This document shows, one piece after another, positions 1-15,589 of a stretch of 15,589 nucleotides of DNA. Source of the stretch: a virus; the UHGV virus genome UHGV-0166683, one strand, 5' to 3'. Position 1 is the stretch's first letter; each line of letters opens with the position of its first letter. Made by a program: the position numbers and the translations under genes. The notes under the pieces are model-generated. The model was given only the letters and a program-made list of their open reading frames with translations. It was not told where the DNA came from and did no database searches.

Positions 1-1
1 T

Positions 2-895: not shown

Positions 896-1231
896 CATTG
901 CTAAACAGCCATCAACAAACCCCATTGCAGTTTGCAGTTCCTTCCTAATTGTGCCATCAGAGCATTTTCTCTTCTTCGCAATAGTGCGTAATGAGATACC
1001 GATAACAAAGTGGGCGATGATGAGCTCATATTCCTCTGGTTTATACCTTCTCAACCGAGCCACACAACTGTCTATCATGATGCCTTCGTCATCATCACAC
1101 TGAATCCGTGACTTTTTGCCATGAGGTAAAAGTCCCTTGAAACCAGCCGCTATCGGCTGCCAGTCCACTCCGCTATTGTCTGAAGCAGCCCAAGCTCCCC
1201 AACGATCCATTACTTCATACATATCACGCAT
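875..1231 (-). CDS. Phage antitermination protein Q (lambdoid Q family)
   Basis: The DRWGAWAA..GVDW motif and the size (118 aa) fit this family, and the gene sits distal to the nin-type genes. The ATG at 1231 is preceded by GGAGAAAGTTG. The track start at 1246 is a TTG with no SD. Confidence 0.8.
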   Translation of the reverse strand: MRDMYEVMDRWGAWAASDNSGVDWQPIAAGFKGLLPHGKKSRIQCDDDEGIMIDSCVARLRRYKPEEYELIIAHFVIGISLRTIAKKRKCSDGTIRKELQTAMGFVDGCLAMLAYSMA

Positions 1232-1248
1232 CAACTTTCTCCACAAAA

Positions 1249-2244
1249 TCAGGCCAACACACCAATTGCCAGCGCACGATCGATAAAACGAAATATCAAC
1301 TCCAGCTGGGAGCCATACTTCTCTTCAAATGCCACGGTATCCGCATGCAGCTCGTCGTGATGCTTTCTGCACAAAGGCAGCACAAAGAGATCATGCGCTT
1401 TTGTACCCATTCCCCCCTGACCGTGGCCTATCAGATGGTGGGGATCATCAGCAGGCTTTCCACAACATGCACACGGCTGCGTCTTAACCCAGCGCGTGTA
1501 CTTTTCATTAACCCAGCGGCGACGTTTTGGGCGTAACATAAAAGACTCCGGCGACTCCGGATCCACTTTCAGCGCCAGCACCTTTTTAGCTTTATCCTGG
1601 ATGATGCTGGTGGCAGGAACCGAAGGCACAAGGTCACTTTCCCGGGTGACAGATGGCACAACAGGCTTCGGTAATCTCAGTGCCTTACGGGCTGCACTTT
1701 CCGGTAAGGCATCCGCCAGATCATTACGAACCAGCCACCAGCACAGTTCCGGCATTGTCACAACGTGACTGTCATCAAAACCGAGATCCCGACGCACGAC
1801 AGACAACACCCAGCGGGCACAGTTATCCGTTGCCATTGATTCCAGCCGTTCCGTGAACTGGTCACGCAGCTGGTTATCGCAGTGCCAGCACAGACGAATT
1901 GCTCCCGGAGCGTGCCGCATTGTGGTCATGTTCTCGCTGTGCCAGTCAGAATGAGGCCACTGACAGCCCTTTTCACGAAGTAACCAGCTTTCAAGACATT
2001 CCACGCCACCAGCACGACGGATCACTGCCTCATTGCGGAACACGGTCCGAACGGCAGGATCATCCGCCAGCGGTTGTGATGCCGCCGGAACGGCACCACT
2101 GGCGAAAGATGAATAACGTTCCGGCTCTGGCTCCAGCAGGACACGCCCCTGCATAAACAGGGGCATCAGCTCTGAACCTGGCCTGAACAATACGATCCCC
2201 ATACGCGGGGCAATTTCAGGCGTCAGTAGTGCTCTCACGGTCAC
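1249..2244 (-). CDS. DUF968-family prophage protein (YdfU-like) with a Cys/His-rich C-terminus
   Basis: C-terminal CACCGKPADDPHHLIGHGQGGMGTKAHDLFVLPLCRKHHDELH is typical of DUF968 proteins found between rusA/ninG and Q. The start is uncertain: GTG at 2244, or GTG at 2238 after GAGG. Confidence 0.7.
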   Translation of the reverse strand: MTVRALLTPEIAPRMGIVLFRPGSELMPLFMQGRVLLEPEPERYSSFASGAVPAASQPLADDPAVRTVFRNEAVIRRAGGVECLESWLLREKGCQWPHSDWHSENMTTMRHAPGAIRLCWHCDNQLRDQFTERLESMATDNCARWVLSVVRRDLGFDDSHVVTMPELCWWLVRNDLADALPESAARKALRLPKPVVPSVTRESDLVPSVPATSIIQDKAKKVLALKVDPESPESFMLRPKRRRWVNEKYTRWVKTQPCACCGKPADDPHHLIGHGQGGMGTKAHDLFVLPLCRKHHDELHADTVAFEEKYGSQLELIFRFIDRALAIGVLA

Positions 2245-2245
2245 C

Positions 2246-3043
2246 TCAATGAACGGTATCGAGTAGCTTTAACAGCTCAGGGAATCGGGATTCGAAGAAA
2301 TGCGGCTGCGTCTCGCGCGGATTTGCGGGACTGGTGATGTTCTTGCCGAACATGCAGCCTTTCGCCGTCAGCGACCAGAATTTTTTGATGTTGTTAATCG
2401 CGGTACGGCTGTATCGTTCGCGCTGCTCGACGATCCCCAGCTTCACCATCTGGTGATATGCCTGATTAGCTGTCAGGCGGATACCATACTGCTTCAGCAG
2501 TGCACTCAGTGACAGCGTGGGGCGGCTTGAGCCATCAGGCGCGTCAGCAGGAGCATCAATGGCATAGCGCGGTGCCAGATTCGGTAAGCCAACAGCCTCC
2601 TGGAGTTTCTGACAGGCTCCAAGCACTGAAGAGTTAGACAGATTTAACTCCCGGCGCATAAAGTCCAGCAGAATCACGCCAGCCTGCATCTTGTCAGCAG
2701 CCTGTCCGGATAATTTTTCAGGTGCGCTGGTTACCATGTCGAAAGTACGGATCACCTTCAGATGGAATGACGGGCTGATCCACATTGCATAGGCATACAC
2801 CAGTTCTTTGCAGACATACGTCCCCTGGTTATTTCCGCCACGAATAACGTTAACTGGCTCTATATTGACCGAGTTGCAAATCTGCAACTCGCTTATTAAA
2901 CGTTCAGTTTGCTCATTGCGGAGCCAGAATGCAGGCTTATGCTTATCCAGAGAACCGGCAGCCCTGTGCAGATCGTTCAGGCTGTAACGACCATAAGCAT
3001 CACGACGAACTTCAATACCATCAATGACCATCAGATTATTCAT
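2246..3043 (-). CDS. KilA-N domain protein (antirepressor-like)
   Basis: The N-terminus MNNLMVIDGIEVRRDAYGRYSLNDLHRAAG..KHKPAFWLRNEQT matches the KilA-N pattern. A GAGGAG SD lies upstream of the ATG at 3043. Confidence 0.75.
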   Translation of the reverse strand: MNNLMVIDGIEVRRDAYGRYSLNDLHRAAGSLDKHKPAFWLRNEQTERLISELQICNSVNIEPVNVIRGGNNQGTYVCKELVYAYAMWISPSFHLKVIRTFDMVTSAPEKLSGQAADKMQAGVILLDFMRRELNLSNSSVLGACQKLQEAVGLPNLAPRYAIDAPADAPDGSSRPTLSLSALLKQYGIRLTANQAYHQMVKLGIVEQRERYSRTAINNIKKFWSLTAKGCMFGKNITSPANPRETQPHFFESRFPELLKLLDTVH

Positions 3044-3062
3044 ACTTCGTTTCTCCTCTTAA

Positions 3063-3452
3063 TCAGGCGGCTGCACCCGCCGGTTTCTCGTACTTACTGA
3101 TAGTGATCTCGACCTTCCCTTCCGGGATAACCGGTCCCCACTCCACCAGCATTCTTTTCACCTGACTGTCGTCTTCCCACACACCCGCGTGGGTCAGGGC
3201 GTCAAACAGCGCCTTGTTATAGTTGTCCAGATCGCGGATCCGGTTATCCGGAGGAAACAACACGATCTCCACTGAAGCTGGTGCCGACGTTGGTTTCGGC
3301 AGACGGCGTAACTGCTCAATGATGGCGGCACACGCCGCGCCCTGGAATTTACGCCCCGCCGCGCTTATCAGGCTCTTACCTGCAAAAGCCCCTTTGTTGG
3401 GGTGTCGCCAGTACGTGTTCACGCTGGGGGGAAACGGCAGGATCAGCTTCAT
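3063..3452 (-). CDS. rusA: Crossover junction endodeoxyribonuclease RusA (Holliday junction resolvase)
   Basis: LPFPPSVNTYWRH and RDLDNYNKALFDALTHAGVWEDDSQV align with E. coli RusA motifs. An ATGA overlap links it to the upstream gene. Confidence 0.9.
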   Translation of the reverse strand: MKLILPFPPSVNTYWRHPNKGAFAGKSLISAAGRKFQGAACAAIIEQLRRLPKPTSAPASVEIVLFPPDNRIRDLDNYNKALFDALTHAGVWEDDSQVKRMLVEWGPVIPEGKVEITISKYEKPAGAAA

Positions 3453-3775
3453 ACTTTCAGGCCCCTCTCATGTAACCAGTGGGCTGCACGCAGCCTGGCG
3501 TTTTCCTCACCAGCAAGCAGTGCGCGGATAATCCCGGCCACCTCGCTGTCGTCGTCCTTCACCGCGGTATGAAGAGTTATCCCCCGGGCCACGCCACGCT
3601 TTATCGTGATGACGCCTTTTTTCTCCAGTGCGCGAAGATGCTCCACCGCTGCATTCACTGAACGGTATCCCAGCATGGTTGCCACCTCCTGATTGGTTGG
3701 CGGGAAGCCACGTTCTTTCTGGTAAGAAATCAGCATATCCAGCACCTGCTGCTGGCATTGAGTTAACGTCGTCAT
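3449..3775 (-). CDS. LexA DNA-binding-domain-like winged-helix protein with no S24 peptidase domain
   Basis: QQQVLDMLISYQKERGFPPTNQEVATMLGYRSVNAAVEHLRALEKKGVI resembles the LexA N-terminal domain. At 108 aa it has no Ala-Gly site or Ser/Lys protease part. It has ATGA overlaps at both ends. Confidence 0.7.
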   Translation of the reverse strand: MTTLTQCQQQVLDMLISYQKERGFPPTNQEVATMLGYRSVNAAVEHLRALEKKGVITIKRGVARGITLHTAVKDDDSEVAGIIRALLAGEENARLRAAHWLHERGLKV

Positions 3776-4425
3776 GCCGCCATCTCCCTGACCAGTTTTT
3801 CCGCCTGCTGGCGAACCTGCGCCAGAAAGGCCTCACCACATGCCTCAAGTTCATCGCGCCCGATGTAGCTGATTGCCGATCCCTTCCAGGTCTTGTCGAA
3901 AACAGCAATAGCACCAGCGAAGAAAGCACCTGTCGGCACCTGCTTCTCGTCCTTCGGTATAAACCAGGCAGGTAGTTCAAAACCAATACGCCCGCGAATA
4001 AAAGCAATATGATCTGCATCTTCCGGCCACCACACTTCGCTGGTAGCTGCTTTGATCAAGAAAACATAGCGCCCGCCTTTATCACGCATGGCACTGGCAT
4101 GCTTCATGATGTAACGCATGCCGGTGATGTATTGCCCCTCATGCTGACTGGCGCGGCTGTATGGGGGATTACCAAAGGCAGCACCTTTAAGCTCCGCAAG
4201 ACGTTCTGACCAGTCATGCGCCAGCGCGTTGTCTTCCGCCGTGTAATACGCGGCACATTTGGCGTTATCACCGTCAGTGAACAGATCCAGAACAAACGGG
4301 CCAAACAGGGTGTTAATTCCCCAGAAAATGTTGTCCGGCGTGCGCCACTGATCGCCCACTTCCTTCAGTTCATGGGCTGGTTTGTTCCGCAGTTCCACCA
4401 GCGCCTGCCAATATTTATTACTCAT
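3772..4425 (-). CDS. Phage-type DNA N6-adenine methyltransferase (Dam family)
   Basis: Contains DQWRTPDNIF, LDLFTDGDNAKC and the catalytic FGNPPYS motif. The start is set at the ATG at 4425, which overlaps the upstream stop as TAATG; the 11-codon extension in the track lacks support. Confidence 0.85.
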   Translation of the reverse strand: MSNKYWQALVELRNKPAHELKEVGDQWRTPDNIFWGINTLFGPFVLDLFTDGDNAKCAAYYTAEDNALAHDWSERLAELKGAAFGNPPYSRASQHEGQYITGMRYIMKHASAMRDKGGRYVFLIKAATSEVWWPEDADHIAFIRGRIGFELPAWFIPKDEKQVPTGAFFAGAIAVFDKTWKGSAISYIGRDELEACGEAFLAQVRQQAEKLVREMAA

Positions 4426-4913
4426 TAAGCCCCCACGTAATTCCCTGACAGATACCACTCATCACCCGATACAGCGCACTTGCTGCTTTTCCGTAAGCAC
4501 CGCTCACGGCGCGCCAGAAAATTGTTTCGTTCTGGCTGGGAGTGGCTTTCACGGAATGCCGCCATCCACACGGTTGCAGCACGACGGTATAAGCCCCTGG
4601 ACTCCAGTTCTTCAGCCTGGCGGGTCAGGCACAAAATTACCCGTGGATCGTTAGTGCCGACATAGAAATTGCGCACAGGTCTGGTTTCACGAACTGGTTG
4701 TGGTTCCGGCTCCTGCGCTCTCTCAGTCAGGCGCGGGAAATGTCTGCGTGTATCTCCTTCACAACGGTGAGCCACACGCCCACTCTGACGTAACTTGCTT
4801 GCTGACTGCAGAACGCGCTGCCGTGAGTAATCTGCAAAAGCATCCGCAATGTCTCCGGAAGTACACCCCGGATGGGCTTCAATGAATTTCTGAACGTCAT
4901 TTAACAGACTCAT
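4425..4913 (-). CDS. PerC-family transcriptional regulator-like protein (winged-helix N-terminus plus PerC-like C-terminus)
   Basis: AEELESRGLYRRAATVWMAAF...ARRERC resembles the PerC/Pch signature (LERAGLWRRAA.W...RR..C). The ATG at 4913 follows a GGGGG SD. Confidence 0.6.
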   Translation of the reverse strand: MSLLNDVQKFIEAHPGCTSGDIADAFADYSRQRVLQSASKLRQSGRVAHRCEGDTRRHFPRLTERAQEPEPQPVRETRPVRNFYVGTNDPRVILCLTRQAEELESRGLYRRAATVWMAAFRESHSQPERNNFLARRERCLRKSSKCAVSGDEWYLSGNYVGA

Positions 4914-4915
4914 GA

Positions 4916-5857
4916 TCACCCCCTGAATCCTGCCGGGATCTGGCTGTAGTCCACATTGTCGTAACTGGATTTGAAGTACGGGTCTTCGCGTTTTTCGGTG
5001 TACGTGCTTACGGACGGCGATAAGCGCAGGGAAAGCTCATCCCATTTTTCCCGCAGCTTCGACGGGCTGAGCACGTTACGGCACCAGAACGGATCGCGGC
5101 TGACGCGGCTGTACATCTCGCAGATTTGTTTGTGAGTACGACCATCCTGCACACACATCAGGCGAATTTCGTTTGCCCAGGCTGTCCAGTTCGGTTCTTT
5201 GGGACGAACCACCTCGCCGTCACATTCGGCAGCCTGCTCGTACAGGGCGATGATTTTTTTCCAGAGCCACTGTGCGCAGGTCAAATCATCCTGCGTCCCC
5301 CACTGGCGCTTTTTAGGGCTGAATACAACCGCATCAGGATGGCGAGTTAAAAAATCCTGTTCAGCCGTCTGCGTGTCCGGTTGCGAAGCGTCCGGACGAG
5401 AAGGTTTTTTATCTGACGGATCATGTTTTGATTTTACTGACGGATCCCCGCCAGATTCTGACGGGTGAAAACCTGCTTTTTTGCCAGATTTCGACGCATC
5501 AAATTTTGACGGGTCAGATTTTGATGCGTCAGATTTTGACGGGTCAGAATCTGACAGTTGAGAAAATGCCGCTGCCTGAAGCTTCGCAACGTTAAGCTGA
5601 TAAACATTCGACGCATTGCGGTTACCCTGGCGACGCGCCTTACGCGTTAACCAGCCTTCTGCTTCCAGCCGTGCGATAGCCGTTCTGACGGTACTCATCC
5701 CCGCGCCAATCTGACGGGCAATGGTTTCAATTGATGGCCAGCACACACCTTCGTCATTACTGAAATCAGCCAGGCGGGCCATAATTGCCACGCTGGATAA
5801 CTTCATGCCTGATGCAGCGCAACCATCCCATACATAGCCGGTTAATTTAGTGCTCAT
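4916..5857 (-). CDS. Replication initiator, O-like (N-terminal HTH, repetitive linker encoded by ori iterons)
   Basis: An N-terminal winged-HTH (SIETIARQIGAGMSTVRTAIARLEAEGWL) is followed by a DPSKSDASKSDPSKFDASKS linker encoded by tandem DNA repeats. It lies downstream of cro and cII, as in lambdoid phages. Confidence 0.75.
   Translation of the reverse strand: MSTKLTGYVWDGCAASGMKLSSVAIMARLADFSNDEGVCWPSIETIARQIGAGMSTVRTAIARLEAEGWLTRKARRQGNRNASNVYQLNVAKLQAAAFSQLSDSDPSKSDASKSDPSKFDASKSGKKAGFHPSESGGDPSVKSKHDPSDKKPSRPDASQPDTQTAEQDFLTRHPDAVVFSPKKRQWGTQDDLTCAQWLWKKIIALYEQAAECDGEVVRPKEPNWTAWANEIRLMCVQDGRTHKQICEMYSRVSRDPFWCRNVLSPSKLREKWDELSLRLSPSVSTYTEKREDPYFKSSYDNVDYSQIPAGFRG
5411..5563. repeat. 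Putative phage replication origin iterons inside the O-like gene
   Basis: There are five head-to-tail 15-bp units at 5489-5563 (tttcgacgcatcaaa, ttttgacgggtcaga, ttttgatgcgtcaga, ttttgacgggtcaga, atctgacagttgaga). Related copies lie at 5411, 5435 and 5456. Each has a dyad core TGAC-nn-GTCA. Confidence 0.65.
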
Positions 5858-6026
5858 GACCGACCTCTATTTCCCTGAATTTACGACGAAACTGTTCGAG
5901 CGGACTGAAGCATTCATGCTCATAACCTTCGCGGAGGTAGATAACCCGTTGTGTTTCCGGTTCCCAACGAATGACTCTGACGGGCACTCCGTAGTGATCT
6001 TTGAACCAGCGGTTAACTTGTCGCAA
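5847..6026 (-). CDS. Small 59-aa protein (resembles DUF4222-type prophage proteins), TTG start, hidden in the -1 frame of the 112-aa ORF
   Basis: It is absent from the ORF track, being below 60 aa. A perfect AGGAGG (6034-6039, complement) lies 7 nt before the TTG at 6026. Translation is [59 protein letters not shown]. The stop overlaps the O-like start by 11 nt. The sequence reads as globular, unlike the frame-A tail. Confidence 0.5.
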
Positions 6027-6205
6027 AGGACTGCCTCCTTCTGCCGGTTGAAATCACCCACAGCCCACTCTGCAAAGCTGTGGGTTACAATTTCCCTGTC
6101 ACCTGGTACATTCACTGCATAGCAATACTCCACCTTCGCTTTTCCACCCGGAACCGGAAGCGCAATCAGTTGCGAGCGACGGTAGTGTGTTGTTAAACTG
6201 TTCAT
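5867..6205 (-). CDS. Hypothetical protein (112-aa ORF); only the N-terminal part looks like genuine coding sequence
   Basis: An ATGA overlap links it to the CII-like gene stop. The N-terminal ~60 aa are plausible, while the C-terminal half is Ser/Asn-rich and overlaps the better-supported 59-aa ORF in another frame. Confidence 0.4.
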
Positions 6206-6765
6206 GCGTTAGTTTCTCCACAGTCACGACACGCCACGGCGCCCGGAGCTGCACACTCGCGGGCGTCACTACTTTCTGAAACGCAAAAGATTTTGTAGAC
6301 CAGTGCTGCATGCTCCTGCAGCTTCGAAATTGAGAGGTACAGCTCGTCGTTAATTGCTGTCTTCTCATGCGGTTCCACTACACCGTCTTCGATTGCTGAA
6401 CGAATCTGTTTTGAATAACTGCCGATCTGTTCAATGACCTCCAGCAGGCGTTGGTTGATATCGGCATTGTCCACATCCTCGACGTCAGGAAGAGACACAA
6501 AGACGCCATTTGCAGACTGCGCCACAGCATCAGCAATGAAGTGAGTGCCACCAGCACGCTGCAAAACCATTGCCCATCCCAGCGGGAAAATCTGATCGCC
6601 ATCTGCACGAAGGCGGTTGAATAAAGCGTTTTCTGTTACATCGAGCCAGTCAGCCGCTTCAGCGTAACCACCCGGCAACGCCGCGATAGTTTTTCTGACA
6701 GCTTTCACGTACCACTCAGGCTGTTTTTCTATTTTCCAGTGATGCTTACCCACGATTAGCCTCAT
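6202..6765 (-). CDS. CII-like phage regulatory protein (CP76/186-CII-type architecture)
   Basis: It lies directly after the cro-like gene. [28 protein letters not shown] resembles the HTH region of 186-type CII proteins. The start is uncertain: ATG at 6765, or GTG at 6753 after GAGG. Confidence 0.5.
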
Positions 6766-6796
6766 CGTTCTGTGGTTAAAAATTGAAAGTGTTCTG

Positions 6797-6997
6797 CTAA
6801 TCTTTCGGATAGATATCCGGTCTTAAGTCAGATTTCGTAATTGCACCTGATGTGTATTGCTCAAGTTTTTTAGCCAGCACAAAACTGGCTTTTTTATAGC
6901 CATTGAAAACCAGCCGTAAGTAGCCAGGTGTTGAGCCAACTTTTCCGGCCAACTCGCCCTGCTGTTCTTTGGTTAAAGAGTCCCAATACGCTTTCAT
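6797..6997 (-). CDS. Cro-like / YdaS-family HTH regulator (66 aa)
   Basis: The internal ATG at 6997 is preceded by a GGAGG SD. The sequence is MKAYWDSLTKEQQGELAGKVGSTPGYLRLVFNGYKKASF...LRPDIYP, and the RPD ending matches YdaS/Cro-like proteins. It diverges from the CI gene. The upstream 101 codons of ORF 6797..7300 cross the operator region and are rejected. Confidence 0.75.
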   Translation of the reverse strand: MKAYWDSLTKEQQGELAGKVGSTPGYLRLVFNGYKKASFVLAKKLEQYTSGAITKSDLRPDIYPKD

Positions 6998-7003
6998 ACA
7001 ATA

Positions 7004-7020
7004 TGTACCTCCGGTGTACA
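7004..7020. promoter_or_regulatory. Candidate CI/Cro operator (OR1-like)
   Basis: TGTACCTCCGGTGTACA is a 17-bp near-palindrome matching TGTACC-N5-GGTACA with one mismatch. It overlaps the cro SD and the predicted PR start region. Confidence 0.55.
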
Positions 7021-7047
7021 TATTACATGATTGAAATGAACCTTCAA
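7020..7047 (-). promoter_or_regulatory. Candidate PR-like promoter for the cro-like operon
   Basis: On the minus strand: -35 TTGAAG (7042-7047), a 16-nt spacer, then -10 TAATAT (7020-7025). A weaker operator-like 17-mer, TGAACCTTCAAGATACT (7037-7053), covers the -35. Confidence 0.4.
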
Positions 7048-7052
7048 GATAC

Positions 7053-7081
7053 TTGTACCTTAACGGTACAAGGGTTTTAAT
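7053..7081 (+). promoter_or_regulatory. Candidate PRM-like promoter giving a leaderless or near-leaderless cI mRNA
   Basis: -35 TTGTAC (7053-7058), a 17-nt spacer, then -10 TTTAAT (7076-7081). The cI ATG at 7088 has no SD, as for lambda cI transcribed from PRM. Confidence 0.4.
7054..7070. promoter_or_regulatory. Candidate CI/Cro operator (OR3-like)
   Basis: TGTACCTTAACGGTACA is a perfect TGTACC-N5-GGTACA palindrome, extended to CTTGTACC/GGTACAAG. It lies between the -35 and -10 of the predicted PRM. Confidence 0.6.
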
Positions 7082-7087
7082 TTCGTT

Positions 7088-7762
7088 ATGAAAACAATCC
7101 ATGACATCCGGCGGTCTAACGCCAGAAAACTGAGAGATGGTGTTGGCGGGAATTCTTCCTTTGCCACTATGATTGATCGCGAGCCAACCCAGACCAGCAG
7201 GTTTATGGGAGATGGTGCTACTAAAAATATCGGTGACAGCATGGCACGACACATCGAAAAATGTTTCGACCTGCCTGTAGGATGGCTCGATCAAGAACAC
7301 CAGACAACGAACATCACAAAAAAACCTGATGTTTCAATCACTAATAAACAAATCACATTAGTCCCTGTCATATCATGGGTACAGGCCGGAGCATGGAAAG
7401 AAGTTGGATATTCTGAGGTTGATTTGAGCACAGCAGAAACGTATCCCTGCCCTGTACCCTGTGGGGAAATGACTTATATCTTGCGGGTGATAGGTGATTC
7501 AATGATTGATGAGTACCGCCCGGGAGACATGATTTTTGTCGATCCTGAAGTACCTGCCTGCCACGGTGACGACGTTATTGCATTGATGCACGATACAGGT
7601 GAAACCACCTTCAAAAGGTTGATAGAAGATGGGACACAGCGTTATCTCAAAGCGTTAAACCCAAACTGGCCTGAGCCTTACATTAAGATCAACGGTAATT
7701 GCTCTATAATTGGTACTGTGATTTTCTCAGGAAAACCAAGAAGATACAAAATCAAAGCCTAA
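7088..7762 (+). CDS. cI: CI-type prophage repressor (HTH plus S24 LexA-like autopeptidase domain)
   Basis: The C-terminal S24 motifs are RVIGDSM (Ser) and TFKRL (Lys). A candidate cleavage site lies at VQAGAW. The gene diverges from the cro-like gene. Confidence 0.9.
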   Translation: MKTIHDIRRSNARKLRDGVGGNSSFATMIDREPTQTSRFMGDGATKNIGDSMARHIEKCFDLPVGWLDQEHQTTNITKKPDVSITNKQITLVPVISWVQAGAWKEVGYSEVDLSTAETYPCPVPCGEMTYILRVIGDSMIDEYRPGDMIFVDPEVPACHGDDVIALMHDTGETTFKRLIEDGTQRYLKALNPNWPEPYIKINGNCSIIGTVIFSGKPRRYKIKA

Positions 7763-7774
7763 TCAATGTTTATG

Positions 7775-7798
7775 AACCTGCTTCGGCAGGTTTTTTTA
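7775..7798 (+). terminator. Rho-independent terminator after cI
   Basis: The stem is AACCTGC/GCAGGTT with a TTCG loop, followed by a run of T's. Confidence 0.75.
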
Positions 7799-7801
7799 TA
7801 C

Positions 7802-7829
7802 TTGACAATGTGCCTTTGAGATACATAAT
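7802..7829 (+). promoter_or_regulatory. pL-like early-left promoter
   Basis: -35 TTGACA (7802-7807), a 16-nt spacer, then -10 CATAAT (7824-7829), immediately after the cI terminator. Confidence 0.55.
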
Positions 7830-7845
7830 GTACCCAAGAGAAACA
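7809..7845. promoter_or_regulatory. Candidate OL operators (two 17-mers)
   Basis: TGTGCCTTTGAGATACA (7809-7825) and TGTACCCAAGAGAAACA (7829-7845) each have two mismatches to TGTACC-N5-GGTACA. They bracket the -10 of the pL-like promoter. Confidence 0.4.
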
Positions 7846-7935
7846 ACAAACAGGCAGGACGCCCACGAAGTAGCCGCCTGGGGCATATGAAGTCCAGGAT
7901 GATTCGTTAGCGGATGATTTCAGTGGAGAGAATAG

Positions 7936-8244
7936 ATGAATGAGCAGGATTTGAAGCATGTGATCGCATTGTTGCTGGAAGACGCTAAACGTTTGCAGCA
8001 GATAGAGCCAAATGCAGGCACTGAGGCCCGTATTTTGTTAGCAAAACAGGCATTAAAGACTTGCGAGGCGCAAGACCCTGATCGAACCAAGTTCATGAAT
8101 TTCATGGCTAACACGATCACCCCACTGCCATGCAATGGAGAGAGGGTGAGCCGTGTTTATCACGACACAATGGTTAAGGCATTAAGAATCGAGCTTGATG
8201 GGCTTAGGCGTAAGATCGTGATGAACAAAATCGTTGCCAACTAA
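7936..8244 (+). CDS. Hypothetical 102-aa protein, first gene of the early-left transcript
   Basis: A GGAGAG SD lies 5-6 nt before the ATG. The sequence looks helical. There is no arginine-rich N-terminal motif, so it is not an N-type antiterminator. Confidence 0.6.
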   Translation: MNEQDLKHVIALLLEDAKRLQQIEPNAGTEARILLAKQALKTCEAQDPDRTKFMNFMANTITPLPCNGERVSRVYHDTMVKALRIELDGLRRKIVMNKIVAN

Positions 8245-8523
8245 GGAAGCAGACGGAAGTAAGCATGCGCTTTGTTCAAATTTGCAGACAAATATATTTG
8301 CGTCAACACCAGCACTGTTAGCAATGGAAAAAGTTTGATCAAGGATTTGTTGGCAGTTCATTGTGCTTTTGAGGATATATCCCTCTGGAATCAGTCTGCA
8401 GCAGCTATCGTCAGACTCTTTGATTGTTTTCTGGTACAGAAAGTTAAGCATTAATTCTTCAAATTTTTTGGTCTGTTCGGCTGTTGCTTCAAACAGACGA
8501 ACGTGAACATAAAACTGGTTCAT
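8182..8523 (-). CDS. Hypothetical 113-aa protein, opposite in orientation to the surrounding operon
   Basis: The ATG at 8523 is preceded by AAGGAAA. The N-terminus is MNQFYVHVRLFEATAEQTKKFEELM. The gene is lower in GC than its neighbours, and its 3' end overlaps the 7936..8244 gene by 63 nt. Confidence 0.5.
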   Translation of the reverse strand: MNQFYVHVRLFEATAEQTKKFEELMLNFLYQKTIKESDDSCCRLIPEGYILKSTMNCQQILDQTFSIANSAGVDANIFVCKFEQSACLLPSASLVGNDFVHHDLTPKPIKLDS

Positions 8524-8666
8524 TAGGTTTCCTTGCTGGCTGTGTGAGAACTCCAGCATACCACCGAGCCTGAAGTGGTGAAAAGACAGGCAATAGTTTC
8601 ATTGCTGTGTGTAGTCCTGGCGGTACCAGTTTGTACCCTTGCTTCCGGCTGGTACCGCTCTTTTTA

Positions 8667-8753
8667 CAAAACAGAGAAGAGCATCACCGGACGACGGGCT
8701 CATAACCCAATCCATCCGGGCGGCTGCCACCGCAGGTGTTCTTCTCTGTTTTG
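8667..8753 (+). repeat. Long inverted repeat (17-bp arms, 16/17 complementary, 53-nt spacer) in the leader of the yfdP-like gene
   Basis: CAAAACAGAGAAGAGCA (8667-8683) pairs with TGTTCTTCTCTGTTTTG (8737-8753). The single mismatch would be a G-U pair in RNA. Confidence 0.6.
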
Positions 8754-8802
8754 TGGAGAAACCAACCGACCTTGCAGGGTCGATATGATGAGGAGCAGCA
8801 AA

Positions 8803-9165
8803 ATGGCTAGCGAACGCGGTACTGATGTGCAGGCATTTATCGGGGAGCTGGACGGCGGCGTATTTGAAACCAAAATCGGCGCAGTTCTCAGTGAAGTCGC
8901 TTCCGGTGTGATGAACACGAAAACCAAAGGTAAGGTCTCACTCAACCTGGAAATCGAACCATTTGATGAGAACCGTGTGAAAATCAAACACAAACTCTCA
9001 TATGTTCGCCCGACTAACCGCGGGAAAATTTCCGAAGAAGACACCACCGAAACGCCGATGTATGTCAATCGCGGTGGGCGCCTGACTATTCTGCAGGAAG
9101 ACCAGGGACAATTACTGACTCTTGCCGGTGAGCCTGACGGAAAACTCCGCGCAGCAGGTCATTAA
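8803..9165 (+). CDS. yfdP: YfdP-like prophage protein (120 aa)
   Basis: The ATG at 8803 follows a GAGGAG SD. The size, and the position directly upstream of yfdQ/yfdR homologues, match K-12 CPS-53 gene order as I recall it. The GTG-initiated 76-codon extension in the track is rejected. Confidence 0.65.
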   Translation: MASERGTDVQAFIGELDGGVFETKIGAVLSEVASGVMNTKTKGKVSLNLEIEPFDENRVKIKHKLSYVRPTNRGKISEEDTTETPMYVNRGGRLTILQEDQGQLLTLAGEPDGKLRAAGH

Positions 9166-9230
9166 TATCGTTCTTAATTAACTGATTATTTACCTCATCA
9201 CTGAATATCTTTATATAGTGAGGACTTATT

Positions 9231-10055
9231 ATGTCTCAGAACTTAGACGCAACCGCAATTAATCAAATCCATGCCCTTATTTCTGCTCAGGGTGTTAATG
9301 AAATTATCAGTAAGATTGGTGCCGACGCAGTGGCATTACCTGAAAATTTCCGCATTCATGATCTGGAAAAATTTAATTTAAATCGCTTCCGTTTCCGTGG
9401 CGCGCTTTCCACTGCCTGCATCGATGACTTTACCCGTTATTCTAAAGATCTTGCAGATGAAGGCACCCGCTGCTTTATCGATGCCGATAATATGCGTGCC
9501 GTCAGTGTTCTTAACCTGGGTACTATTGATGAACCAGGTCACGCAGATAATACCGCCACTCTCAAACTGAAAAAGACAGCACCGTTCTCTGCACTGTTGT
9601 CTGTTAACGGCGAGCGTAACTCCCAGAAGTCACTGGCAGAATGGATTGAAGACTGGGCCGACTACCTTGTGGGCTTTGATGCTAATGGTGACGCCATTCA
9701 GGCAACCAAAGCGGCTGCGGCGATCCGTAAAATCACAATTGAAGCGAACCTGACTGCTGATTTTGAAGACAATGACTTCAGCGGCAAACGCTCCCTGATG
9801 GAGTCTGTCGAAGCGAAGACCAAAGACATTATGCCAGTGGCATTTGAATTTAAATGCGTTCCGTTTGAAGGCCTGAAAGAACGTCCGTTTAAATTACGCC
9901 TCAGCATTATCACTGGCGATCGTCCTGTACTGGTACTACGCATTATTCAGCTGGAAGCAGTGCAGGAGGAAATGGCTAACGAATTTCGTGATCTGCTTGT
10001 TGATAAATTCAAAGACAGCAAAGTAGAAACCTTTATTGGTACTTTCACCGCCTGA
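9231..10055 (+). CDS. yfdQ: YfdQ-like DUF2303 family protein (274 aa)
   Basis: The length and the start [21 protein letters not shown] match my recollection of E. coli K-12 YfdQ. A GTGAGGA SD precedes it. Confidence 0.8.
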
Positions 10056-10067
10056 TTTCATTACTGC

Positions 10068-10089
10068 AAATGCCCCTGCGGGGGCATTT
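10068..10089 (+). terminator. Hairpin / possible weak terminator after yfdQ
   Basis: AAATGCCCC-TGCG-GGGGCATTT is a perfect 9-bp stem with only a short T tract, so it may be an attenuator or stabiliser. Confidence 0.5.
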
Positions 10090-10183
10090 ATGGAAACGTA
10101 ATTGACTCAATAATCGCCTGATGGCGAGGGTTTTCTTTAACCAAAATTCAGCGCGGTGCAGCGCATATAACGTGGAGAACAAA

Positions 10184-10720
10184 ATGTCATTTATTAAAAC
10201 TTTTTCCGGGAAGCATTTTTATTATGACAAGATAAATAAAGACGACATCGTTATTAACGATATCGCGGTTTCCCTTTCAAATATCTGCCGCTTTGCAGGA
10301 CACCTTTCACACTTCTATAGCGTCGCCCAACATGCGGTGCTTTGCAGCATGCTGGTACCGCAGGAATTTGCTTTTGAAGCATTAATGCATGATGCAACAG
10401 AAGCGTATTGCCAGGACATTCCCGCACCACTGAAACGCCTTCTTCCTGACTATAAACGGATGGAAGAAAAAATAGACGCCGTAATCCGTGAGAAATACGG
10501 GTTACCTCAGGCTATGAGCACGCCCGTGAAATATGCCGATCTCATCATGCTGGCAACCGAACGCCGCGATCTCGGGCTTGATGATGGCTCTTTCTGGCCA
10601 GTATTGGAAGGTATCCCGGCAACAGAGATGTTCGAAGTTGTTCCTCTGGCTCCTGGCCATGCCTACGAGATATTTATGGAACGTTTTAAAGAGCTGCATA
10701 AGATACATAAGCAATCCTGA
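10184..10720 (+). CDS. yfdR: YfdR-like HD-domain 5'-deoxynucleotidase (178 aa)
   Basis: The ATG at 10184 follows a GGAGAA SD. MSFIKTFSGKHFYYDKINKDDIVINDIAVSLSNICRFAGH and the HD motif ALMHDATEAY match K-12 YfdR. Confidence 0.85.
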   Translation: MSFIKTFSGKHFYYDKINKDDIVINDIAVSLSNICRFAGHLSHFYSVAQHAVLCSMLVPQEFAFEALMHDATEAYCQDIPAPLKRLLPDYKRMEEKIDAVIREKYGLPQAMSTPVKYADLIMLATERRDLGLDDGSFWPVLEGIPATEMFEVVPLAPGHAYEIFMERFKELHKIHKQS

Positions 10721-10775
10721 CAGCGAAATTAACTAGTGAAATAGTTTTGTAGCAAAAGAAATGAGGTTATCAAAA

Positions 10776-11021
10776 ATGCTTCAAATGCTGACACTTGAGG
10801 AATGGGCTGCGGAAAAATTTAGGAGTAATCCTCCAAGTGTGTCCACATTGCGTCGTTATGCTAAGCAGAATTTATTTTGTCCACCAGCAATGAAACAAGG
10901 TCGACTCTGGCGAGTACGTGAGGACGCAGAGTTAGTTGGGGAATTAGTTACTCCAGTAATCAAGAAAAGTGATTCTATTATTCTGCAAAGGATTTTAAGC
11001 AATGGCAGCCAGACCACGTAA
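10776..11021 (+). CDS. xis: Excisionase (lambda Xis family)
   Basis: MLTLEEWAAEKFRSNPPSVSTLRRYAKQNLFCPPAMKQGRLW parallels lambda Xis (YLTLQEWNARQRRPRSLETVRRWVRECRIFPPPVKDGREY). It overlaps the int start by 20 nt, as in lambda. The start could be 10761, 10776 or 10785; 10776 has the best spacing from GAGG. Confidence 0.8.
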   Translation: MLQMLTLEEWAAEKFRSNPPSVSTLRRYAKQNLFCPPAMKQGRLWRVREDAELVGELVTPVIKKSDSIILQRILSNGSQTT

Positions 11022-12129
11022 AAATAATGTTTCAGTACCTAACTTGTATCCGCTTTATAGTAGAAAAGTAAATAAAGTCTATTGGCGATATAAGCATCCA
11101 GTGACCGGGAAATTTCATTCGTTGGGCACAAATGAAGCTGAAGCTATTGCTATTGCCACTGAAGCTAACACTCGTCTGGCTGAGCAAAGAACCCGGCAGA
11201 TTCTAGCTATCAGTGATAGGATCGCAACCAGCAAAGGAAAAGCGATCACAACGTCAACCTGGTTAGATCGCTATCAAGCGATCCAGGATGACAGGCTCAA
11301 AAGTGGTGATATAAGACTCAACACCTATAAGCAAAAAGCTAAACCAGTATCCTTGCTCAGAGAACGAGCAGGAATGAAGTTGATCTCATCCGTTGATGTT
11401 AGAGATATAGCACAATTGCTTGATGAGTATATTGCAGCTGGACAGCCTAGAATGGCCCAAGTCGTTAGGTCTGTATTGATCGATGTGTTTAAGGAAGCAC
11501 AGCATTATGGCGAAGTTCCGCCAGGGTATAACCCTGCTCTTGCGACGAAGCAACCCAAAAGAAAAATTACCCGTCAACGCCTCAGCCTGGAAGAATGGCA
11601 AAAAATATTCGATATAGCAGACGCCAGTCATCGTTACATGGGAAATGCCATGCTCCTAGCTTTGGTCACTGGGCAGCGTTTGGGAGATATATCCAAAATG
11701 AAATTTAGTGATATTTGGGAAGATCATCTTCACGTCATTCAGGAAAAGACTGGAAGCAAAATCGCTATCCCTCTTTCTCTTCGCCTCAATGCGATTAACT
11801 GGAGTTTACGCGATGTAATAGCCCGCTGCCGTGACTATGCAGTCAGCCCATACCTAGTGCATTTTTTCCGTTCAACTTCACAAGCAGAACGTGGGGCACA
11901 GGTTAAATCCAATACATTGACGATGAACTTTAGTAAAGCGAGAGATTTAGCAGGAATTGACTGGGGTGATGGCTCACCCGCAACATTCCATGAACAAAGA
12001 TCGTTATCTGAACGCCTGTACAAGGAGCAAGGGATAGATACCAGAAAGCTACTTGGGCATAAAACACAACAACAAACCGATCGTTACCATGATGACCGAG
12101 GGAAAGGTTGGAGCAAAGTAGCTTTGTGA
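11002..12129 (+). CDS. int: Lambda-family tyrosine integrase
   Basis: Catalytic motifs are VTGQRLGD (Arg), FHEQRSLSERLY (His-x-x-Arg), LLGHK and DRYHDDRG (Tyr). These are collinear with lambda Int. Confidence 0.92.
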   Translation: MAARPRKNNVSVPNLYPLYSRKVNKVYWRYKHPVTGKFHSLGTNEAEAIAIATEANTRLAEQRTRQILAISDRIATSKGKAITTSTWLDRYQAIQDDRLKSGDIRLNTYKQKAKPVSLLRERAGMKLISSVDVRDIAQLLDEYIAAGQPRMAQVVRSVLIDVFKEAQHYGEVPPGYNPALATKQPKRKITRQRLSLEEWQKIFDIADASHRYMGNAMLLALVTGQRLGDISKMKFSDIWEDHLHVIQEKTGSKIAIPLSLRLNAINWSLRDVIARCRDYAVSPYLVHFFRSTSQAERGAQVKSNTLTMNFSKARDLAGIDWGDGSPATFHEQRSLSERLYKEQGIDTRKLLGHKTQQQTDRYHDDRGKGWSKVAL

Positions 12130-12340: not shown

Positions 12341-13456
12341 TTAAATTAAATCAAATAGCCCATGTTCATCTATAGCCTTTGAACTAATTAAGTTCGCGGC
12401 TTCTATGTCATTGTCACTTGCCTCAGAAATAAGGAAAAATGAATCAACATGATTTTGCAAAATAATTTCCTTATACTTCTTGAGCCATTGTAATTTACCT
12501 GTAGTGAACAATACTTTACGCGGTAGCAAAATACGGCTAAAAACTGATGGAAGATACTCACTTCTATTAAATGGAATAAAAGGGTCGCCTAAAGAAAGAA
12601 TAGTTAGACGATTAAATTCACCGTGCGAATTCAATTTTTCAGCTGATTTGGCTATACCACTTGGTAAAAAAACACCTGTCTTGATACCGTTGCGTAAAGC
12701 AACAACAGCCATCATTTTATCAAAGGCAGTACCTCCAAATAATAAGGAATATCCTTTTTTAACAGAAAGATCAATAGTATCAAGAACAACTTGTTTTTCT
12801 ATATCACTTGGTGACGTGCTCGAAATTATCGAAAGATCAAAATCAGTAAATAACTGCCCAGTATAATAAAGATTTTTGCCGGTGAAAGTTGACAACTTTA
12901 AAGGAAACATTTTATCATCATGCTTAATTTCAGATACATTAAGATCTGTTAAGGATGGATAGTTAAAGTTTGGTGAGGCTTTTCCGTGTTTATTATTTTT
13001 TGATGCCTGCGGACTAAAAACTAGAATTTCATTTTTATTATTACACAGGTAATCCTGTATCATTTTTTTTACAATATCCCAATCAAGACCACCGTGACCA
13101 CAACCTAAAGCTGGCAGGGTGATTGTTTTTCCATGTTTATTATCCAAATATTTCGAGAGCCAATGCAGTCCTTTTTCGATATATTCGTACTTAGACTTAT
13201 TTCTCCAATGATCCTTGGTGGGAAAGTTTATGATTTCTATTTCCTTACCATACGTATCATTACCTTTCCAAACAGCTGGTCTTCCTGGAGATATTTCTCC
13301 TTTTTTACACAGCAATACGTATTCATTATACATTTCAGGAAACTTATTCTTAAAAGCAAAAGCAACCCCTGCCCCCATTACACCAACACAATTAACTGTA
13401 TTAATTCTAATGTCAGCAGCATAATCGAAAAAATCACCATCAACATATCTAATCAT
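12341..13456 (-). CDS. darG: DarG-like macrodomain protein fused to a C-terminal DprA-like (DNA-processing A / SLOG-type Rossmann) domain, 371 aa
   Basis: Macro motifs are NTVNCVGVMGAGVAFAFK, INFPTKDHWRNKS and LPALGCGHGGLDW. The C-terminal half parallels the DprA core: GKNLYYTG..LSIISSTSPS, LLFGGTAFDKMMAVVALRNGIKTGVFLPSGI and ILSLGDPFIPFNRSEYLPSVFSRILL. The start is set at the ATG at 13456, preceded by a perfect AGGAGG; the 42-codon upstream extension has no SD. Confidence 0.8.
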   Translation of the reverse strand: MIRYVDGDFFDYAADIRINTVNCVGVMGAGVAFAFKNKFPEMYNEYVLLCKKGEISPGRPAVWKGNDTYGKEIEIINFPTKDHWRNKSKYEYIEKGLHWLSKYLDNKHGKTITLPALGCGHGGLDWDIVKKMIQDYLCNNKNEILVFSPQASKNNKHGKASPNFNYPSLTDLNVSEIKHDDKMFPLKLSTFTGKNLYYTGQLFTDFDLSIISSTSPSDIEKQVVLDTIDLSVKKGYSLLFGGTAFDKMMAVVALRNGIKTGVFLPSGIAKSAEKLNSHGEFNRLTILSLGDPFIPFNRSEYLPSVFSRILLPRKVLFTTGKLQWLKKYKEIILQNHVDSFFLISEASDNDIEAANLISSKAIDEHGLFDLI

Positions 13457-13926
13457 AAAACCTCCTTTGGTCAGAGTATACATCCTTATTTCTGGCTCTT
13501 CAATTCTATTGTCAAAAACTTTTACAAAGTCTGCATCAGTAAAACTGATGGCGCATTTTAAAATTAAAATCAATATGTCCATATCAAACGTTATATTTGT
13601 TATTTTTTGTATTTATTATTCATATCCATCATGTGCTATTAAATCGCCCAAAAGAACATAATAAATTATGTGCACCACTTTCTTCTTATTGAATTTTGGA
13701 TTACATTACGATCTAAATTAGATCTTTTGCCAATATCATAAACATATGCAGCAAACGTTGCAACAAGCTGTTCTCATTCTAACAGTTAGTAGAATATAAA
13801 CTCTGTAATTAGCACACTGAATTCCCTTCATCTATGAGTTACAACATCCTTTAAGTGAATAGTATTGTTAGTTTAAATCTATTAATATCATTCATAAAAC
13901 TATTTTATATAGTTAAAGTCATTATA

Positions 13927-14163: not shown

Positions 14164-15510
14164 TCATAAACTGTTCCCCTGCAATCTTTGGAGAACTTCA
14201 TCCCGGAGATCATCGATCCCGTCAGAAACCTGAGCTAACCAAACTTGACTTAATGAGCCAATATCAGCCTTACTTAGGGCTACTAACATATTGATATCTT
14301 CAGAAGATGTAACTATATCGAACAACTGATTTTTATTCCTCCCTTTAGCTACTATTTCCCCCAATAAATCATCATACGTAACTAACATCATTATTTTTCT
14401 AACTAGATCGGTTTGTATGACTGGCAGATCTTCTGTCAAAATTCGTTGTAGCATCGCAAGTGACTTCCTAGGATGCTCTCCATCTGCCTCATGCATGTAA
14501 TTATTATTCCAACGTGTTTTAGGCCCTTTGCCTATATCATGCAAATAAGCGGCCAACTCCAAAACTTCCTGATGAATAGAGTCTAATTGATAAAACTCTG
14601 GTGAATTAACTACAAGACTAGCCACTCGTCGACTATGAGAGCCAACATCTTCATTATGAGGCCCGTAGCTCGTCCCCAATCCATCGATATCTTCAAGCTC
14701 TTGGATGGAGGAGAAATTACCACGAATTGCACTTAGAGCATCACTAATACTTTGAAATTTTGGCCTCGTTTCTCGTTGAAATGAAGTTACATATTCAATA
14801 GCTTCATCAAAAAGCATTTTTAACACTACCGGTCCCGTGACTAAGGATGAGGACCAGTTTCCAGGTTGATAATAATAATGTTGAAAATCACCCTCAACAA
14901 TATTTGGTGGAACAATACCTTTGTTCTGGAAAATACTCCTCACAATATCAGACATAGAACGATTCCATGTAATTATCTGATTTATTTCGCTTAAAGAGAC
15001 ATGATCTGGCAGCAAAAGTTCTGCCATCTTTTTATGCCTCTGAGTCTCGTCAGCATAACCCCATGCATTATTATCTATGGTAGCCCAATCTAATACATCA
15101 AGCTGGTCAGCTTGAGTATTACCAGAATAAAAGTTCGGTGGATTAACTGTATTTGCGGAAGCATCTGTAAAATATGACCCATTCCTTGTTTCGAGTGATA
15201 ATATAGAAACTGAAAGATAGATAATAAATTGCTGATCTACATTTTTTTTATGAAGAACAGACAATTGCATGGGCGTTTTTTTTGCAAAATAAAAAGGAAC
15301 ATAATCATGAACACAACGACCATTCGTATTAGGCACCTGCATCACTGCCCTACGCCCCTGTATTCCTTCATCAGCAACATTCACATGTGATATACGACGT
15401 GCAATTTTCTGATTAGTCGAAAACAGCCCAGTTTCAATTATTGATTCAAGATTATCTACTGACGTAAAGTGATATGCATTTCGGTGTCTATGGTGAACAG
15501 GAACTGTCAT
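14164..15510 (-). CDS. darT: DarT-like (DUF4433) DNA ADP-ribosyltransferase domain fused to a C-terminal HD phosphohydrolase domain, 448 aa
   Basis: DarT motifs occur in the canonical order: AYHFTSVDNLESIIETGL, RCVHDYVPFYFAKKTPM, SYFTDASAN, LDVLDWATI and KKMAELLL (E164 at the catalytic Glu position). HD motifs are HSRRVA (H292), AAYLHDIGK (H324 D325), EHPRKS (H346) and TYDDLLG. Confidence 0.85.
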   Translation of the reverse strand: MTVPVHHRHRNAYHFTSVDNLESIIETGLFSTNQKIARRISHVNVADEGIQGRRAVMQVPNTNGRCVHDYVPFYFAKKTPMQLSVLHKKNVDQQFIIYLSVSILSLETRNGSYFTDASANTVNPPNFYSGNTQADQLDVLDWATIDNNAWGYADETQRHKKMAELLLPDHVSLSEINQIITWNRSMSDIVRSIFQNKGIVPPNIVEGDFQHYYYQPGNWSSSLVTGPVVLKMLFDEAIEYVTSFQRETRPKFQSISDALSAIRGNFSSIQELEDIDGLGTSYGPHNEDVGSHSRRVASLVVNSPEFYQLDSIHQEVLELAAYLHDIGKGPKTRWNNNYMHEADGEHPRKSLAMLQRILTEDLPVIQTDLVRKIMMLVTYDDLLGEIVAKGRNKNQLFDIVTSSEDINMLVALSKADIGSLSQVWLAQVSDGIDDLRDEVLQRLQGNSL

Positions 15511-15513
15511 GTA

Positions 15514-15589
15514 CTGATGAATCCCCTAATGATTTTGGTAAAAATCATTAAGTTAAGGTGGATACACATCTTGTCATATGATCAAATGG
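15514..15589 (+). mobile_element. IS10: IS10 (Tn10-type) outside end, truncated by the window edge
   Basis: CTGATGAATCCCCTAATGATTTTGGTAAAAATCATTAAGTTAAGGTGGATACACATCTTGTCATATGATCAAATGG is the well-known IS10 outside terminus. The transposase ATG would lie about 30 nt beyond the window. Confidence 0.9.

Follow-up and report, generated by a model that had tools for sequence, protein, structure and literature searches.

The stretch analysed here (the window) comprises 15,589 nucleotides of the virus genome UHGV-0166683. It carries a toxin-antitoxin pair of the DarTG type in which both partners are fusion proteins: the toxin joins a DarT domain to an HD domain, and the antitoxin joins a macrodomain to a domain of the DprA clade. 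The identity and architecture of the antitoxin, which is our main subject, can be assigned with high confidence. The features of the locus are as follows (coordinates are those of the window).

12341..13456, minus strand: antitoxin gene, encoding the 371-amino-acid (aa) Macro + DprA-like protein; an intact open reading frame (ORF) of 371 codons plus stop, with the stop codon at 12341-12343
12992..13456, minus strand: DarG-type macrodomain, residues 1-155 of the antitoxin (Pfam, NCBIfam and PDB matches)
12938..12991, minus strand: linker, residues 156-173 (the model is of low confidence where the linker begins, with a predicted local distance difference test score, pLDDT, of 62 over the initial 10 residues of the modelled piece)
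12344..12937, minus strand: DprA-clade Rossmann (SLOG) domain, residues ~174-371, in place of the canonical DarG C-terminal domain (homology, fold and motif mapping)
13475..13872, minus strand: degraded HD part, all that is left of a second darT-HD gene, of the lineage cognate to the antitoxin (found by tblastn with the toxin of the related locus L002)
14164..15510, minus strand: toxin gene, encoding the 448-aa DarT-HD fusion (Pfam DarT E 5.1e-40, HD E 2.8e-6)
14872-15474, minus strand: DarT domain of the toxin, residues 13-213
14167-14865, minus strand: helical linker and HD domain of the toxin, residues 216-448

The pair belongs among DarTG2 systems: its two genes lie side by side on one strand and match Pfam DarT and Macro (E 3.1e-17), respectively. 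The Macro match covers antitoxin residues 18-132. The DarG models of PADLOC and NCBIfam match residues 1-163 only, that is, half of each profile. On the NCBIfam model NF048014 (DarG), the antitoxin scores 225.1 bits over profile positions 1-162 of 338, which is below the curated cut-off of 250 bits; two canonical DarG proteins scanned with the same model score 352-392 bits and match it end to end. Among solved structures, the antitoxin matches the macrodomains of T. aquaticus DarG (5m31, antitoxin residues 1-149, E 2.7e-31) and M. tuberculosis DarG (5m3i, E 1.8e-30). Residues N22 and K81, the latter in the segment FPTKDHW, correspond to N22 and K80 in the active site of TaqDarG (PMC13309987), and both glycine loops are conserved too. 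By every available sequence criterion, the N-terminal half of the antitoxin is a catalytically competent DarG-type macrodomain. From the close homology and the conserved catalytic residues, we strongly infer that it reverses the ADP-ribosylation by DarT of thymidine in single-stranded DNA (ssDNA).

To characterise the remainder of the protein, antitoxin residues 160-371 were aligned with 30 relatives, all mutually less than 75% identical (alignment A1). When the 31 members were scanned singly, 16 matched the Pfam family PF02481 (DprA) at E<=1, the best at E 2e-6, and the distant relative P0149 reached 32.6 bits. The antitoxin from the window had no PF02481 match at E<=1 in the Pfam scan and stayed short of the gathering score of 29.6 bits. 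A search of 1.84 billion representative proteins with the A1 profile returned only 56 at E<=1e-3. The strong matches were Macro fusions of the same family, and the tail (E 6.5e-5 to 1e-3) consisted of genuine DprA proteins, with Pfam E values of 5.6e-26 to 6e-79. Comparison of A1 with nine of those DprAs by hhalign gave a probability of 98.8% (E 4.4e-17) over 158 columns.

The AlphaFold2 model of the domain is of very high confidence, with a pLDDT of 92.9 and a predicted TM-score (pTM) of 0.90. A Foldseek search of the PDB with this model placed the DprA proteins of S. pneumoniae, H. pylori and R. palustris, together with E. coli ShosA, at the top (E 1e-7 to 1.2e-5, TM 0.65-0.74, 207-219 columns), with LOG and MoCo-carrier SLOG proteins as the next neighbours. 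The domain has the extended Rossmann fold of the DprA type as well as the Rossmannoid fold of the SLOG superfamily (SMF/DprA-LOG). A search of PDB sequences with the A1 profile had retrieved neither DprA nor DarG but only chance matches to nucleotide-binding domain 1 (NBD1) of CFTR, at E 0.36-0.54. A sequence-only search of the PDB is too insensitive for this domain, and structure search together with profile-profile comparison is required. The first-pass annotation of this DNA had read the gene as a macrodomain fused to a DprA-like domain, and this reading is borne out by the Pfam and PDB macrodomain matches, the hhalign probability and the first places of DprA and ShosA in the structure search. 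The three motif correspondences that it had drawn by eye all fall in register in a MAFFT alignment: LYYTG with PPxLYxxG, FGGT-AFD with SGxAxGID, and EYLPSVFSRILL with xFPARNRIIxGL.

Seven DarG genes from plasmids served as the canonical comparison set. All seven are preceded by a short DarT of 200-221 aa without an HD domain. Their C-terminal domains share the conserved segments QKLxYF and GPY and make up one family; one of these domains matches the solved structure 7yk3_B at E 6.8e-89. Between this domain and the DprA-like domain, no relation was detected by hhalign (0.06%). Since the two are unrelated, the fold assignment stands; the C-terminal half belongs neither to the canonical DarG family nor to a fold unrelated to DprA, the two outcomes that had been named beforehand as speaking against the prediction. 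Alignments to a canonical Mesorhizobium DarG (tblastn/BLASTP) that reached residue 287 had briefly suggested homologous C-terminal domains. This candidate was dropped, since beyond residue ~160 the alignments consist of low-identity gapped filler and hhalign gives 0.06%. The DprA-clade domain has therefore displaced the unrelated helical domain by which canonical DarG binds and blocks DarT; binding of DarT by the C-terminal domain has been described for DarG of enteropathogenic E. coli (EPEC) (PMC7003065).

With canonical DarG (T. aquaticus, M. tuberculosis Rv0060, EPEC) the antitoxin shares the macrodomain family with its catalytic Asn and Lys, the PADLOC DarG match, the position of the gene directly downstream of darT and the two-domain plan with a C-terminal domain of ~200 aa. 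It differs in that the canonical C-terminal domain is helical, binds DarT and mimics ssDNA (7yk3), whereas here a DprA-clade Rossmann domain is found, and in that canonical DarT is devoid of the HD domain carried by the partner toxin here. DarTG1 (DarT1 with NADAR) likewise combines a DarT-family toxin with an enzyme that reverses DNA ADP-ribosylation, and its antitoxin side is modular too. There, however, NADAR replaces macro as the enzymatic domain and the target is guanine, while in our system the macrodomain is kept and the non-enzymatic domain is swapped.

For DprA, an ssDNA-binding signature has been proposed that consists of G-S/T/A-R (G50-R52 in HpDprA) and F/L/Y-x-x-R-N/D (F140, R143 and N144); substitution R52E lowers the ssDNA affinity of HpDprA 315-fold and R143E 173-fold, and G164 contacts the inserted base (PMC3950713). 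The first motif reads S-S-T in the antitoxin and S-S-[ST], once S-G-T, in 12 aligned family members, with Thr or Ser in place of the Arg that corresponds to R52. The second reads Y-L-P-S-V in the antitoxin and Y-x-P-S-V across the aligned family: the aromatic residue is kept, and R143 and N144 are replaced by Ser and Val. The SGS loop of DprA, with G164, is absent, and a TT..L.W segment is present instead. ShosA keeps both motifs, as GTR and FVRRN; mapping of its mutated residues R134 and R243 (PMC11961720) was dropped because their numbering is irreconcilable with the PDB chain. At the family level, 16 columns of the DprA-like domain are invariant, and S54, P57, E61, G82, P106, I109, S129, G131, P133, F137, P144, V146 and R149 (domain numbering) are invariant in the same loops. 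The alignment thus points to a family under clear constraint. Since these loops bear family-specific invariant residues, the DprA pocket is conserved within the family but re-lined, with the basic ssDNA-contact residues gone.

The domain retains several further traits of DprA/Smf proteins (PF02481), namely the YP...L...LYxxG entry, the GG...D loop, and the LPxG and LSxxxP segments, in addition to the aromatic residue of the second motif. Unlike them, it has lost both ssDNA motifs and the SGS loop, comes without SAM or winged-helix domains and is fused to a macrodomain. The A1 family profile preferentially reaches DprA-like proteins in which the second motif is A-M-x-R-N, a variant that occurs in bacteria with a second DprA homologue (PMC3950713); ShosA itself has F-V-R-R-N. 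ShosA (ShosTA; 8zva, 9vzo) resembles the protein studied here in being the antitoxin of a prophage-borne toxin-antitoxin defence system. It is, however, a stand-alone protein of a SAM and a Rossmann domain that keeps the motifs, binds ssDNA and RecA and has a phosphoribosyltransferase (PRTase) toxin as partner, whereas the DprA-like domain here is part of a fusion with an enzyme, is without the motifs and is partnered by DarT-HD; the pairing of a stand-alone SAM protein with a PRTase is not what the locus encodes.

What such a domain may do can be considered in the light of these comparisons. One possibility, the main alternative to the role that we propose below, is that it acts on DNA in the manner of ShosA: it would bind ssDNA, perhaps also RecA, and guide the macrodomain to the ADP-ribosyl-thymidine at stalled forks or ssDNA gaps or, in a variant, promote recombinational repair of the damage and so neutralise the toxin without contact. 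The homology to DprA and the place of ShosA as nearest structural neighbour speak for this, as does the fact that the ShosA antitoxin needs binding of ssDNA and RecA to neutralise (PMC11961720, PMC12961424). DprA homologues are also known as antitoxins, in the form of stand-alone proteins, in shosTA, syrTA and rqlHI (PMC9122126), and RecF-dependent recombination repairs the damage that DarT causes on ssDNA (PMC7003065). Yet both signature motifs and the SGS loop are lost in every aligned family member while ShosA keeps the motifs, and neither a SAM domain nor the DprA C-terminal extension is present. DprA-style ssDNA binding, which the first-pass annotation had suggested, is therefore not supported as stated, the equivalents of R52, R143, N144 and G164 having been lost family-wide. 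On balance, we consider a DNA- or RecA-directed role possible but rather doubtful.

The fold suggests another option, that of a SLOG-type sensor whose nucleotide-derived ligand (ADP-ribose, a derivative of it, or a substrate or product of the HD domain) would turn the antitoxin on or off in the course of an infection. SLOG domains of the LOG, MoCo-carrier and TRPM types, whose ligands are nucleotides or ADP-ribose, come next after the DprA clade among the structural neighbours, and the invariant residues cluster at the C-terminal strand ends, which form the ligand face of SLOG domains. The SLOG domains of Thoeris ThsA sense isomers of cyclic ADP-ribose (PMC11204291), and the HD domain of the partner toxin is a phosphohydrolase of the nucleotide-processing type. 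On the other hand, the glycine-rich nucleotide loops of the LOG type (PGGxGTxxE) are absent, with only FGG remaining, and the two-gene module encodes no signal-producing enzyme. We consider such a sensor very unlikely.

In 15 loci for which upstream sequence was available, a DarT-HD gene lies directly upstream of the Macro + DprA-like gene (15/15, the most distant family members included). These loci come from Enterobacterales (E. coli, Citrobacter), Vibrio, Cellvibrio, Amphritea, Oceanospirillum, Methylococcaceae, Nitrosomonas, a metagenome-assembled genome of Desulfobacterales and uncultured bacteria. A contig scan by a single peptide pattern gave only 8 loci, and the co-occurrence rests on 15 loci, not hundreds. 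Since the HD-bearing DarT is found upstream in all 15, the DprA-like swap and the HD fusion of the toxin travel together, and the pairing is obligate. This constant company is left unexplained by a DNA- or RecA-directed role. The toxin and antitoxin genes usually overlap by a few bases.

The surroundings and the state of individual loci vary, and the system also occupies further hotspots or islands of defence genes. In E. coli LR-28 (L002), the two-gene system lies between a tail-fibre assembly gene and ogr in a P2-like prophage; in L024 it adjoins SNF2-helicase, DUF499 and DUF1156 genes, and in L025 a Bub-type ubiquitin-like conjugation system. The toxin of the Cellvibrio locus (L005, 3596-5001) is truncated and an HD remnant immediately precedes the antitoxin, and in Amphritea (L006, 2657-3999) two separate ORFs encode the DarT part and the HD part. 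Both loci have kept an intact antitoxin.

Among 11 cognate pairs, mean pairwise identity is 45% for the DprA-like domain, compared with 71% for the macrodomain, 59% for DarT and 61% for HD, so that the DprA-like domain is the fastest-evolving part of the system, which is not what would be expected of a generic DNA binder. In most relatives the domain is basic (median isoelectric point (pI) 8.8, net charge +4), which would also suit binding to DNA, and the HD part of the toxin from the window is strongly acidic (pI 4.7, net charge -13).

The locus in the window departs from the usual arrangement. Its toxin and antitoxin genes are separated by ~700 nt instead of overlapping, and DNA similarity to the relatives H8-H10 extends beyond the antitoxin start. 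A tblastn search with the L002 toxin revealed two pieces of a further toxin gene in this interval: aa 278-326 match positions 13872-13726 (53% identity, E 6e-9) and aa 368-438 match positions 13687-13475 (42% identity, E 1.3e-10). The antitoxin from the window is 85-87% identical to the L002 antitoxin of the E. coli P2-like prophage, but the L002 toxin is only 43-46% identical to the toxin from the window. The latter is 74-80% identical to the toxins of L022 and L023, whose antitoxins are only 58-60% (macrodomain) and 33% (C-terminal domain) identical to that from the window. Judged by these lineage identities and by the remnant between the genes, the operon is a mosaic, in which a toxin of one lineage stands with an antitoxin of another and what is left of the cognate toxin separates the two. 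The same mosaic layout is present in Citrobacter (L014).

A DNA-directed domain need not match the lineage of the toxin, so that the mosaic fits the DNA- or RecA-directed role discussed above. It also raises the possibility that we are looking at a decaying recombinant, whose antitoxin survives because its macrodomain detoxifies a non-cognate toxin while the DprA-like domain is functionless in this copy. The remnant of the cognate toxin and the ~700-nt gap in place of the usual overlap are in line with decay, and the EPEC macrodomain alone abolishes toxicity (PMC7003065). Against this, the antitoxin ORF, itself intact, is 85% identical to its counterpart in an intact cognate pair, 7 E. coli genomes have the same sequence with 100% conservation, and the 16 invariant columns indicate constraint on the family; decay would in any case concern the copy in the window and not the family. 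We therefore give little credence to this explanation.

In our view, the DprA-like domain may best be seen as a module that is aimed at the HD-extended toxin, neutralises it by non-enzymatic means and has taken the place of the toxin-binding domain. We favour this role tentatively and hold it with somewhat less than even confidence. The gene itself belongs to an architecturally distinct subtype of DarTG2, a toxin-antitoxin and phage-defence system, and codes for the antitoxin. Its macrodomain very probably strips the ADP-ribose placed on ssDNA thymidine by the neighbouring DarT domain, and its DprA-like domain would dock on DarT-HD, most likely through the old DprA pocket, so that each of the two toxin domains would be answered by one antitoxin domain. 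This role is suggested by the HD fusion that always accompanies the swap, and it is favoured by the replacement of a toxin-binding domain, the strict co-occurrence with HD, the lost DNA-contact residues and the fastest evolution, the last being what one would expect of a partner-specific interface. The domain also has the position and approximate size of the DarT-binding domain in EPEC and M. tuberculosis DarG (PMC7003065; 7yk3), and the mostly basic character of the family domain is consistent with an acidic HD part as its target.

Several observations weigh against a toxin-directed role. The DprA-like domain of the window itself is slightly acidic (pI 6.1), so that charge complementarity fails for this copy. 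The binding partners of characterised DprA-clade proteins are ssDNA and RecA rather than toxins, and ShosA does not bind the toxin that it neutralises (PMC12961424). The persistence of the mosaic argues that neutralisation is independent of a tightly lineage-matched C-terminal domain, at least here; its occurrence in 7 complete E. coli genomes and in Citrobacter is more easily explained if enzymatic reversal by the macrodomain suffices and the C-terminal domain does not act as a toxin clamp specific to one lineage.

The toxin-directed role can be extended to a version in which the HD and DprA-like domains form a second toxin-antitoxin axis in DarTG and the DprA-like domain is also an infection sensor. 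It would restrain the HD-bearing toxin until ssDNA of the phage, a phage protein of the SSB or RecA type, or a nucleotide product engages the re-lined pocket, whereupon the toxin would be released. If true, the domain would be a DprA-derived trigger receptor and not a DNA-repair or DNA-targeting module. This version, drawn from the domain arrangement, seems unlikely to us.

Regulation of DarTG, which has been studied as a system of phage defence and growth control, has so far been explained by two functions of DarG, enzymatic reversal and sequestration of the toxin by the C-terminal domain. As the present family shows, an unrelated, DprA-derived domain can stand in for the entire sequestration domain, in step with the gain of an HD domain by the toxin. 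Two DarTG subfamilies have been named, split by NADAR versus macro antitoxins (PMC11543638), and the second domain of DarG2 has been described only as a DarT-binding domain (PMC13309987). The systems described here form a widespread third architectural class beside DarTG1 and canonical DarTG2. After ShosA, they are the second example, and an independent one, of a DprA-like module used as an antitoxin. A literature search for DarG with DprA and for DarT fused to HD found no description of either, and earlier mention elsewhere remains possible. PADLOC detects the system as DarTG, although the antitoxin has neither the DarG C-terminal domain and full-length score nor the DprA motifs and score; current tools call the family "DarTG" or merely "macro domain-containing protein". 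The antitoxin and the toxin match phrog_30914 and phrog_32804, respectively, each end to end and each labelled "unknown function" in PHROG. Since both proteins have PHROG families of their own, phage databases already hold the pair, unannotated. Its presence in E. coli prophages offers a tractable system in which to study the role of a DprA-like domain in non-competent bacteria and the contribution of HD to a DNA-ADP-ribosylating toxin, and the mosaic locus amounts to a natural cross-neutralisation experiment.

The antitoxin start at 13456 deserves comment. The RefSeq model of the protein (WP_197710563.1) is 410 aa long and starts further upstream, in the region 13457-13582 of the window. A GGAGG Shine-Dalgarno sequence precedes the ATG at 13456 by 5 nt, homologues are 371-381 aa long and have the same start Met, and the extension of the RefSeq model overlaps the toxin remnant. 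For these reasons, the 410-aa start is probably wrong and the 371-aa form correct. A promoter and terminator scan gave results not above shuffled expectation and is uninformative on separate transcription of the antitoxin.

Next to the antitoxin gene lies one further feature that defines the setting of the pair:

11002..12129, plus strand: intE-type integrase of an e14-like prophage (same locus in E. coli 181.1)

The window has matches in E. coli chromosomes; strain 181.1 carries an identical segment, in the order xisE, intE, the macro gene, the DarT-family gene and icd. With the pair thus flanked by intE and icd, it is cargo of an e14-like prophage and has the integrase on one side and the attachment site in icd on the other. 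Over the pair, GC content is 31-38%, versus 43-55% in the remaining prophage. The whole segment is present in only 7 of 5,426 complete E. coli genomes.

An Rfam scan of the whole window gave no match, which includes the last ~100 nt (15487-15589), a dispersed repeat found in 6,335 places in 2,296 E. coli records; its copies are 90-100% identical and lie on both chromosomes and plasmids. Positions 1-12129 make up an e14-like/lambdoid prophage arm that codes for the LexA-family repressor YmfK, YmfL, YmfT, a PerC-family regulator, an N6-adenine methyltransferase, YfdP/YfdQ, xisE and intE. A gene of the replication region (4916-5857) has an internal stop in the annotation of the reference strain, and a stand-alone HD-domain protein is encoded in the same arm at 10121-10720.

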